Part shown: positions 51,001 to 52,387 of the stretch, piece by piece
Layout: the number at the start of each line of letters is the position of its first letter
How positions within the stretch are numbered: position 1 is the first letter of the stretch
DNA from: Escherichia coli
GTDB lineage: Bacteria; Pseudomonadota; Gammaproteobacteria; Enterobacterales; Enterobacteriaceae
Assembly: GCF_003334255.1 (NCBI RefSeq)
Contig: NZ_QOWU01000033.1
Length of the DNA: 57,101 nt
Reading direction: 5' to 3' (one strand)
Program-made: the position numbers

Positions 51001-52387
51001 AAATTGTATATATTTAGGGGCTTTGCTTTCAGGATCTTTACATTCGAATAAGTAACGAACGCCTTTCTTGCCTGATTTATAGGTGAGTATTTTGTATCCA
51101 TCGTAATCATATTTACAGGATGTTGTTTCATTATTTCTATGGAATTCGACAATGCCGTCCTCAATGCCAATCATCTCGATGTCTGTCACATAACCTTTGC
51201 GATAATAATCTTTAATTTCAGCAAATGTTTTGGTTTTATCTGCATCCGCTTTCTTCTGAAAGATGGGGTCAAGTTTGCCACTTTGCAGTAAAGGATAAAC
51301 GGATTGCCAGACTCCATCCCAGTCACTGAGCGTTCGGTTTTGTACATTGGCATCATCAAAAACACCATTAGCAGCTTTTTGTTCGACCTCTGTTAAGGGT
51401 TTGCCGTGTGAGTGATGACCATGCGAAAAGGCAGGAGCGCTAACAATAAAGACACCTAAAGCAACAGCCAGTTTATGAAGACGAATCGCCAAAACAGTTT
51501 CCTCCAGAGTTAATGTATATGATGTGTAATGTTATATTGTAACATATAACAAAATGCAACAACTCTTAGGAGACAAGAGAATAGTTCTCTCAGGTGTGCT
51601 TATCTATCTTATTGAAATAAAATAAATTATGTCGATGATTTGAGGTTGATGACAAACGAAACATAACTTGATGTGATCTGCGTAGGCCGGATAGGGCGCT
51701 CGCGCCGCATCCGGCAGGGATAACGCGTACTTTGTCGGCAATATGAAGTTATACAGATAATTTGTTGTGAACCTGCTTGCGTAACCGGTTAAAAAGGGAA
51801 AGCAACTTCTTATACCGTAAGGTTAAAAGCAGTACCGCCAGCCCAGCGTAGATGAGTGGCTGCGGTGAAATAATCTTCACTGACCACAAATAATGTATTG
51901 GGGCCAGGATCGCGACAAGATAGACGAAGTTATGCAACTGTTGCCAGTGTTTACCGAGTTTTCGCTGCATCGCCTGGGTTGAAGTGAACGCTAACGCAAG
52001 CAAAATTACCCAGCTGATAATACCTAACGTTAAATAAGGCCGGGTAATTAACTCCTTACCTAATAACGCCAGATTATTCACGCCCAGCTCCAGCAATGCG
52101 TAACTGGTTAAATGCAGTGTCGCCCAGGCAAAGCACCATAAGCCTAACAGGCGGCGAGTGCGTATCAATAACGGCTGTTTTGCGTAGCGTGCCAGAGGTG
52201 TGATTAACAAGGTCGCCAGCAAAAATTTCAGTGCAGTGCGACCAGTAAAATGCTGAATATCTTTCACCGGATCGGCACCCAATCCACCGTGATTAATCGC
52301 CCAGACCAGCCAGAGAAACGGCAACAATCCGGCAAGATGCAGGCAAACTTTCAGCCATGTCACCTGTTTTGCTGTCAGACGCATTTA

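Follow-up and report, generated by a model that had tools for sequence, protein, structure and literature searches.

The window, by which the whole analysed stretch of 57,101 bp is meant, is E. coli chromosome, and the 1.1-kb region surrounding the site described here is matched in 5418 of 5426 complete E. coli genomes. Genes in the region follow the order ybt island, int, tRNA-Asn, mtfA, tRNA-Ser, zinT, msrQ, msrP, hiuH and hprRS. The zinT (yodA) open reading frame extends from 51492 to 50842 on the minus strand (651 nt, 216 aa), and the same 651-nt gene is found in the RefSeq annotation of an identical E. coli strain. The TTG start codon of zinT (51490–51492, in the context TTTTGG) is unusual and is retained in most of the aligned genera, from Escherichia to Serratia. 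Downstream of zinT the locus departs from that of K-12 through the absence of yodB, the putative cytochrome b561 gene of the K-12 zinT-serU interval, from positions 50172–50841. Only the last 448 bp of that 1443-bp interval align, to 50619–50172, and the remaining ~995 bp are replaced here by about 220 bp of other sequence. On the opposite side of zinT, directly downstream of the msrQ stop codon, a GC-rich hairpin with 14-nt arms that are 86% complementary occupies 51686–51715 and contains GCCGGATGCGGCG. The msrPQ transcript probably ends at this hairpin, which we take to resemble a REP element and which lies upstream of the zinT promoter; the scan called no T-run terminator at 51686–51715. 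A yersiniabactin high-pathogenicity island (~18900–48850), comprising ybtS-ybtX-ybtQ-ybtP, ybtA, irp2, irp1, ybtU/T/E, fyuA and a frameshifted integrase, is inserted at tRNA-Asn about 2 kb from zinT. The ybtX gene of this island is annotated as a zinc MFS transporter, so that two zinc-acquisition functions are neighbours, a proximity that is probably a coincidence of the insertion site. Four tRNA matches with equal Rfam scores (5239–5311, 7648–7720, 9469–9541 and 49019–49091) correspond to tRNA-Asn in the annotation of a collinear strain, one of them being the ybt attachment site, and tRNA-Ser is located at 50083–50169.

The 256-bp intergenic region between msrQ and zinT contains the 24-mer tgtaatgttatattgtaacatata, read directly from the plus strand of the window at 51525–51548, precisely the sequence and position given in the earlier note on this DNA. 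The zinT start codon lies 33–56 bp downstream of the 24-mer, close to the 35–55 bp estimated previously. The same note described the element as a palindrome. Complementary arms are indeed present, both as the 6-nt pair ATGTTA/TAACAT (51529–51534 and 51540–51545) and as the 8-nt pair TGTTATAT/ATATAACA (51530–51537 and 51544–51551), but the symmetry is imperfect, with 12 of the 15 positions of the 15-mer core 51530–51544 being self-complementary. The best-defined unit is the 20-mer at 51525–51544, which reads TGTTACAATATAACATTACA on the zinT coding strand (51544–51525) and TGTAATGTTATATTGTAACA on the plus strand and is separated from the start codon by 33–52 bp. The final four bases of the 24-mer (51545–51548) fall outside this unit, and two of them, 51546 and 51548, are polymorphic among E. 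coli strains, as are 51549 and 51550 in the remainder of the promoter-distal flank. The features of the region are collected in Table 1.

Table 1. Features of the zinT upstream region, in window coordinates.
Feature	Position	Strand	Basis or remark
zinT (yodA) CDS, regulated gene	50842..51492	-	TTG start at 51492; periplasmic zinc-binding protein
Shine-Dalgarno GGAGG	51501..51505	-	8 nt before TTG start; GAGG conserved across genera
Zur box, two-dimer operator core	51525..51544	-	20/20 to TGWNAYRWTATAWYRTNWCA; K-12 identity; invariant in 11 alleles
Promoter-distal box flank	51545..51552	.	completes 5-bp-shifted second register and 8-nt inverted repeat TGTTATAT/ATATAACA; polymorphic between strains
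Putative -10 hexamer TATAAC, inside box	51531..51536	-	inferred; read from sequence
Alternative extended -10 TGtTACAAT	51544-51536	-	candidate element; TACAAT preceded by TG
Putative -35 hexamer TTGCAT	51554..51559	-	17 nt upstream of TATAAC

The 20-mer agrees at every position with the two-dimer Zur pattern TGWNAYRWTATAWYRTNWCA, derived by Gilston et al. (2014, PLoS Biol 12:e1001987, PMC4219657) from the Zur-znuABC crystal structure and known operators. It constitutes the sole exact match on either strand of the 57,101 bp, where 0.09 matches with two or fewer mismatches are expected by chance. The RNNNYRNNRYNNYRNNNY skeleton of the same work (PMC4219657) is also fitted by the 20-mer, as checked by eye. 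The resemblance to the Zur operator noticed earlier is thus borne out by a 20/20 match to the published box. The published pattern was, however, built partly from zinT, which makes this match circular when taken alone, and for that reason a zinT-free position weight matrix (PWM) was made. This palindromised 26-nt matrix was constructed from three sites only, namely K-12 znuA/znuC, ykgM and pliG. The two highest scores in the whole window were obtained at 51527–51552 (20.3 bits) and 51522–51547 (16.8 bits), and the next score after the zinT site was 12.0 bits. When the window was shuffled 100 times with its dinucleotide content preserved, the top score per shuffle averaged 11.0 and never exceeded 18.7, against the 20.3 observed. 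A PWM scan, named in the earlier note as a way of checking the site, thus places it at the top of the window with a matrix taken from three other K-12 operators. The 12.0-bit match at 10771–10796 (AATCAGCATATTATATCATAACAGGA), ~60–90 bp upstream of yeeN and with two mismatches in its 15-mer core, scores at the level of the shuffles (mean maximum 11.0) and was rejected as a Zur site and treated as chance.

Upstream of zinT in K-12 MG1655 the sole exact match to the pattern is this 20-mer again, with neither the TTG start nor the distance to it altered. A Zur operator at zinT (yodA) is said to have been predicted by Panina et al. in 2003. Binding of Zur to the zinT operator has been characterised directly: ~30 bp are protected (Gilston et al. 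2014, PLoS Biol 12:e1001987, PMC4219657), and two dimers bind as a cooperative, all-or-none dimer of dimers with a Kd-app of 0.053e-18 M^2, one of the tightest values for the four operators compared (PMC4219657). Repression of zinT, measured as wild type versus zur deletion, is 984-fold (PMC4219657). In addition, zinT is placed in the E. coli Zur regulon by reviews, and derepression of chromosomal zinT (ZinT-sfGFP) by EDTA has been followed in vivo. When the literal operator sequence was searched for in the literature, no paper was found. Positions 51525–51544 are almost certainly the Zur operator already described for E. coli zinT, the binding data being those of the K-12 allele; no result of the analysis speaks against this reading, and no new biology is involved. 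The induction of zinT by zinc starvation, proposed in the earlier note, is supported by the identity of the 20-mer with that of K-12, for which published data show both binding by Zur and repression that depends on it (PMC4219657).

Conservation of the 20-mer within the species was assessed by BLAST of a 34-mer over 5426 complete genomes, combined with sampling of variant alleles across the identity range. The 34-mer, which spans the box, is present in 5416 of the 5426 complete E. coli genomes, and the 20-mer is intact in 11/11 distinct E. coli alleles sampled. Substitutions among these alleles are found at 51518, 51524, 51546, 51548, 51549 and 51550 and further upstream. The box is kept in cryptic-clade Escherichia, and in E. 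albertii it carries one change and still fits the pattern. A 68-bp segment containing the box matches 4865 genomes, in contrast with 2071 genomes (megablast), many at 80–90% identity, for the adjacent upstream 68 bp (51561–51628). Position 51549 is polymorphic: K-12 and several other strains have G, and the A found here completes the 8/8 repeat TGTTATAT/ATATAACA and makes the 5-bp-shifted register 51527–51552 the best PWM match. A second block invariant across Escherichia alleles, TTCAATAAGATAG (minus strand, 51604–51616), lies about 110–125 bp upstream of the zinT start and includes the -10-like TAAGAT of a promoter-like match at 51635–51606; this block may serve as an upstream promoter or be bound by a different regulator.

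Across the order, one genome per species was scanned, which yielded 80 zinT loci, 78 of them usable, and a proximal box was defined by a PWM score of at least 15 bits no more than 80 bp from the inferred zinT start. Such a box is found in 60/78 zinT loci of other Enterobacterales species, with a median of 41 bp between its centre and the zinT start, and in none of the control segments of equal length located 700–1000 bp upstream (0/78) or 300–600 bp downstream (0/77). Together with the 20-mer that is invariant in 11 E. coli alleles while its flanks vary, these loci provide the conservation for which the earlier note had suggested looking. In an alignment of 13 genera, upstream conservation is confined to three blocks: ATGTTATAnnATAACAT, which corresponds to the box, the Shine-Dalgarno GAGG and the start codon. 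Most of the loci that are devoid of a proximal box belong to Morganellaceae, where the box lies upstream of a ykgM-ykgO-zinT cluster. Ten loci of Proteus, Morganella morganii and several Providencia (L047, L054, L060, L061, L066, L069, L071, L072, L075 and L078) carry a box of 25–34 bits upstream of ykgM, about 280–420 bp before zinT. In these ten Morganellaceae loci zinT is directly downstream of homologues of ykgM (L31B) and ykgO (L36B), zinc-independent ribosomal protein paralogues, an arrangement that points to ykgM, ykgO and zinT as one unit under Zur control. In Morganella psychrotolerans (L051 and L062), of the two homologues only ykgO was detected, and zinT follows the box at a distance of 168 bp. 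Serratia sp. DD3 (L055–L058) is the sole boxless species, with no Zur box in 3.6 kb and a best score of 5.9 bits. Its zinT loci are identical on four contigs, which reflects either a repeated element or assembly redundancy.

From the hexamers that can be read in the sequence, the Zur box probably overlaps the -10 region of the zinT promoter. The 13-genus consensus displays TTGAAA where the putative -35 hexamer TTGCAT sits, and a TTG is found 13 nt before the core in 17/39 anchored loci, so that the -35-like spacing is partly conserved across genera. In E. coli 2015C-4498 (L090) a 5-bp deletion of TTGCA, aligned to 51555–51559, removes the putative -35 and leaves the Zur box intact. No sigma-70 promoter overlapping the box was called in a consensus promoter scan, whose best matches (51655–51626 and 51635–51606, minus strand) are located 65–150 bp further upstream. 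Neither was adopted as the main zinT promoter, and the -35 half of each lacks conservation in K-12; an upstream promoter may serve zinT. No usable mapped transcription start of zinT was found in the literature searched.

In the zinc-replete cell, zinc-loaded Zur, a Fur-family repressor, would occupy the 20-bp pseudo-palindrome. Published work describes this binding as cooperative, with the two dimers seated on opposite DNA faces; each monomer reads RNNNY, and the central TATA is a key determinant. The box would cover the probable -10 hexamer and the spacer, so that RNA polymerase would be kept off for as long as Zur is bound. Because no mapped transcription start was found and the promoter scan called no promoter at the box, this steric occlusion by Zn-Zur over the -10/spacer region is a step that we infer from the standard mechanism of the Fur family. 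When zinc is exhausted, Zur would lose its regulatory zinc and release the DNA. Expression of zinT would then be strongly induced, and its product would aid ZnuABC in zinc scavenging.

The presence of -10-like hexamers within the box, TATAAC and a TACAAT preceded by TG, invites a simpler reading in which the AT-rich pseudo-palindrome is only the zinT core promoter (-10 or extended -10), with incidental symmetry and no repressor. TATAAT-like elements in AT-rich DNA do have some self-complementarity, and 14 or more self-complementary positions occur in 247 of the window's 57,082 20-mers. However, the match spans the entire 20-bp Zur pattern, including the outer TG..CA beyond the -10 hexamer, and the core conserved across genera, at 15–17 bp, extends well past a 6-bp -10 element. 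Moreover, a PWM from unrelated Zur operators puts the site first and Zur binding is published for the identical K-12 sequence (PMC4219657), which together leave the bare promoter very improbable.

An operator for a different metalloregulator in place of Zur, either a Fur box or a ZntR site, appears slightly less probable again. Fur is a paralogue of Zur, and the AT-rich boxes of the two are related; effects of Fur and SoxS were reportedly described in a 2002 study of yodA. The best intergenic match to the Fur consensus GATAATGATAATCATTATC nevertheless reaches 11/19, which is the background level in a window with 311 positions at 11 or above, and a Fur box at zinT was therefore rejected. The best matches to this consensus in the window, at 15/19 each, are found at 40277–40295 in the ybtA-irp2 intergenic region and at 41454–41472 in the ybtP-ybtA intergenic region, where iron regulation of the ybt island would be expected. 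As for ZntR, an exact 9-nt half-site, ACTCTGGAG, is present at 51510–51502, 15 bp downstream of the Zur box, and a 2024 paper describes partial ZntR recognition sequences that overlap Zur boxes, including that of zinT. A full ZntR (MerR-type) operator, consisting of the dyad ACTCTGGAGTCGACTCCAGAGT in a promoter with a spacer of about 20 bp, was rejected, since one half-site only and no dyad was found; for comparison, the K-12 zntA promoter does contain the dyad, and ACTCTGGAG is an exact copy of one of its halves. The same 2024 paper suggests that apo-ZntR acts on DNA-bound Zur and does not bind the partial sequences alone, which would make it a supplement to the Zur explanation and not a replacement. 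The 9-nt element (minus strand) overlaps the zinT Shine-Dalgarno and is the sole copy in the 57 kb, where 0.26 copies are expected by chance and at least one copy occurs in 22% of shuffles. It is conserved in E. coli and not in other genera, and may be related to the reported partial ZntR sequences near Zur boxes. Finally, that the inverted repeat forms an RNA hairpin in the zinT 5' leader, affecting stability or translation, has a negligible probability and was rejected, since the 8-bp stem UGUUAUAU/AUAUAACA can be drawn but the predicted fold (-6.7 kcal/mol, z = +0.55) is equalled or bettered by 140/200 shuffles, the 8/8 stem requires the polymorphic 51549 (G in K-12) and the likely -10 inside the box would leave most of the repeat untranscribed.

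With the site read as the Zur operator of zinT, the differences carried by this allele may be considered. It is possible, though unlikely, that the allele differs quantitatively from the K-12 operator through the A at 51549 and that ACTCTGGAG provides a through-DNA basis for apo-ZntR at zinT, a reading drawn from the sequence itself. If so, the 8/8 repeat and the shifted register 51527–51552 could extend or strengthen Zur occupancy, and the half-site could supply the physical means at zinT by which apo-ZntR exerts its recently proposed 'through-DNA' effect on bound Zur. The locus also shows that a genuine operator was recognised from raw sequence alone by the first-stage reader, and it offers a clean positive control for operator calling that combines an exact pattern, an independent PWM and conservation in both species and order. 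The zinT promoter is employed as a zinc-starvation reporter, a use for which the invariance of the box amid varying flanks across E. coli is mildly useful.

Compared with the K-12 zinT operator, the site described here shares the 20-bp box and the 24 bp gene-ward of it, the regulated gene, the orientation and the distance to the TTG codon. The two differ at 51549 (A here, G in K-12) and in several upstream changes at ~51563–51600. The E. coli znuA/znuCB operator, the DNA of crystal structure 4MTD, has the same 20-bp architecture, and the znu box (TGTGATATTATAACATTTCA) and the zinT box (TGTTACAATATAACATTACA) align base for base, each fitting the IUPAC pattern at 20/20. In contrast to zinT, the znu site serves a divergent promoter and is bound by Zur roughly 150-fold more weakly by Kd-app (PMC4219657), with a repression of about 7-fold against about 984-fold at zinT (PMC4219657). 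The Zur operators of ykgM (L31p) and pliG belong to the same motif family, and the affinity of the ykgM operator is similar to that of zinT (PMC4219657). Unlike zinT, the K-12 copies of these two operators each depart from the IUPAC pattern at one position, and a single-dimer intermediate is formed at pliG (PMC4219657). Similarly, a Fur box is an AT-rich pseudo-palindromic operator of a Fur-family paralogue that overlaps promoters, but the central TATA that is found at the zinT site is specific to Zur (Gilston et al., PMC4219657).
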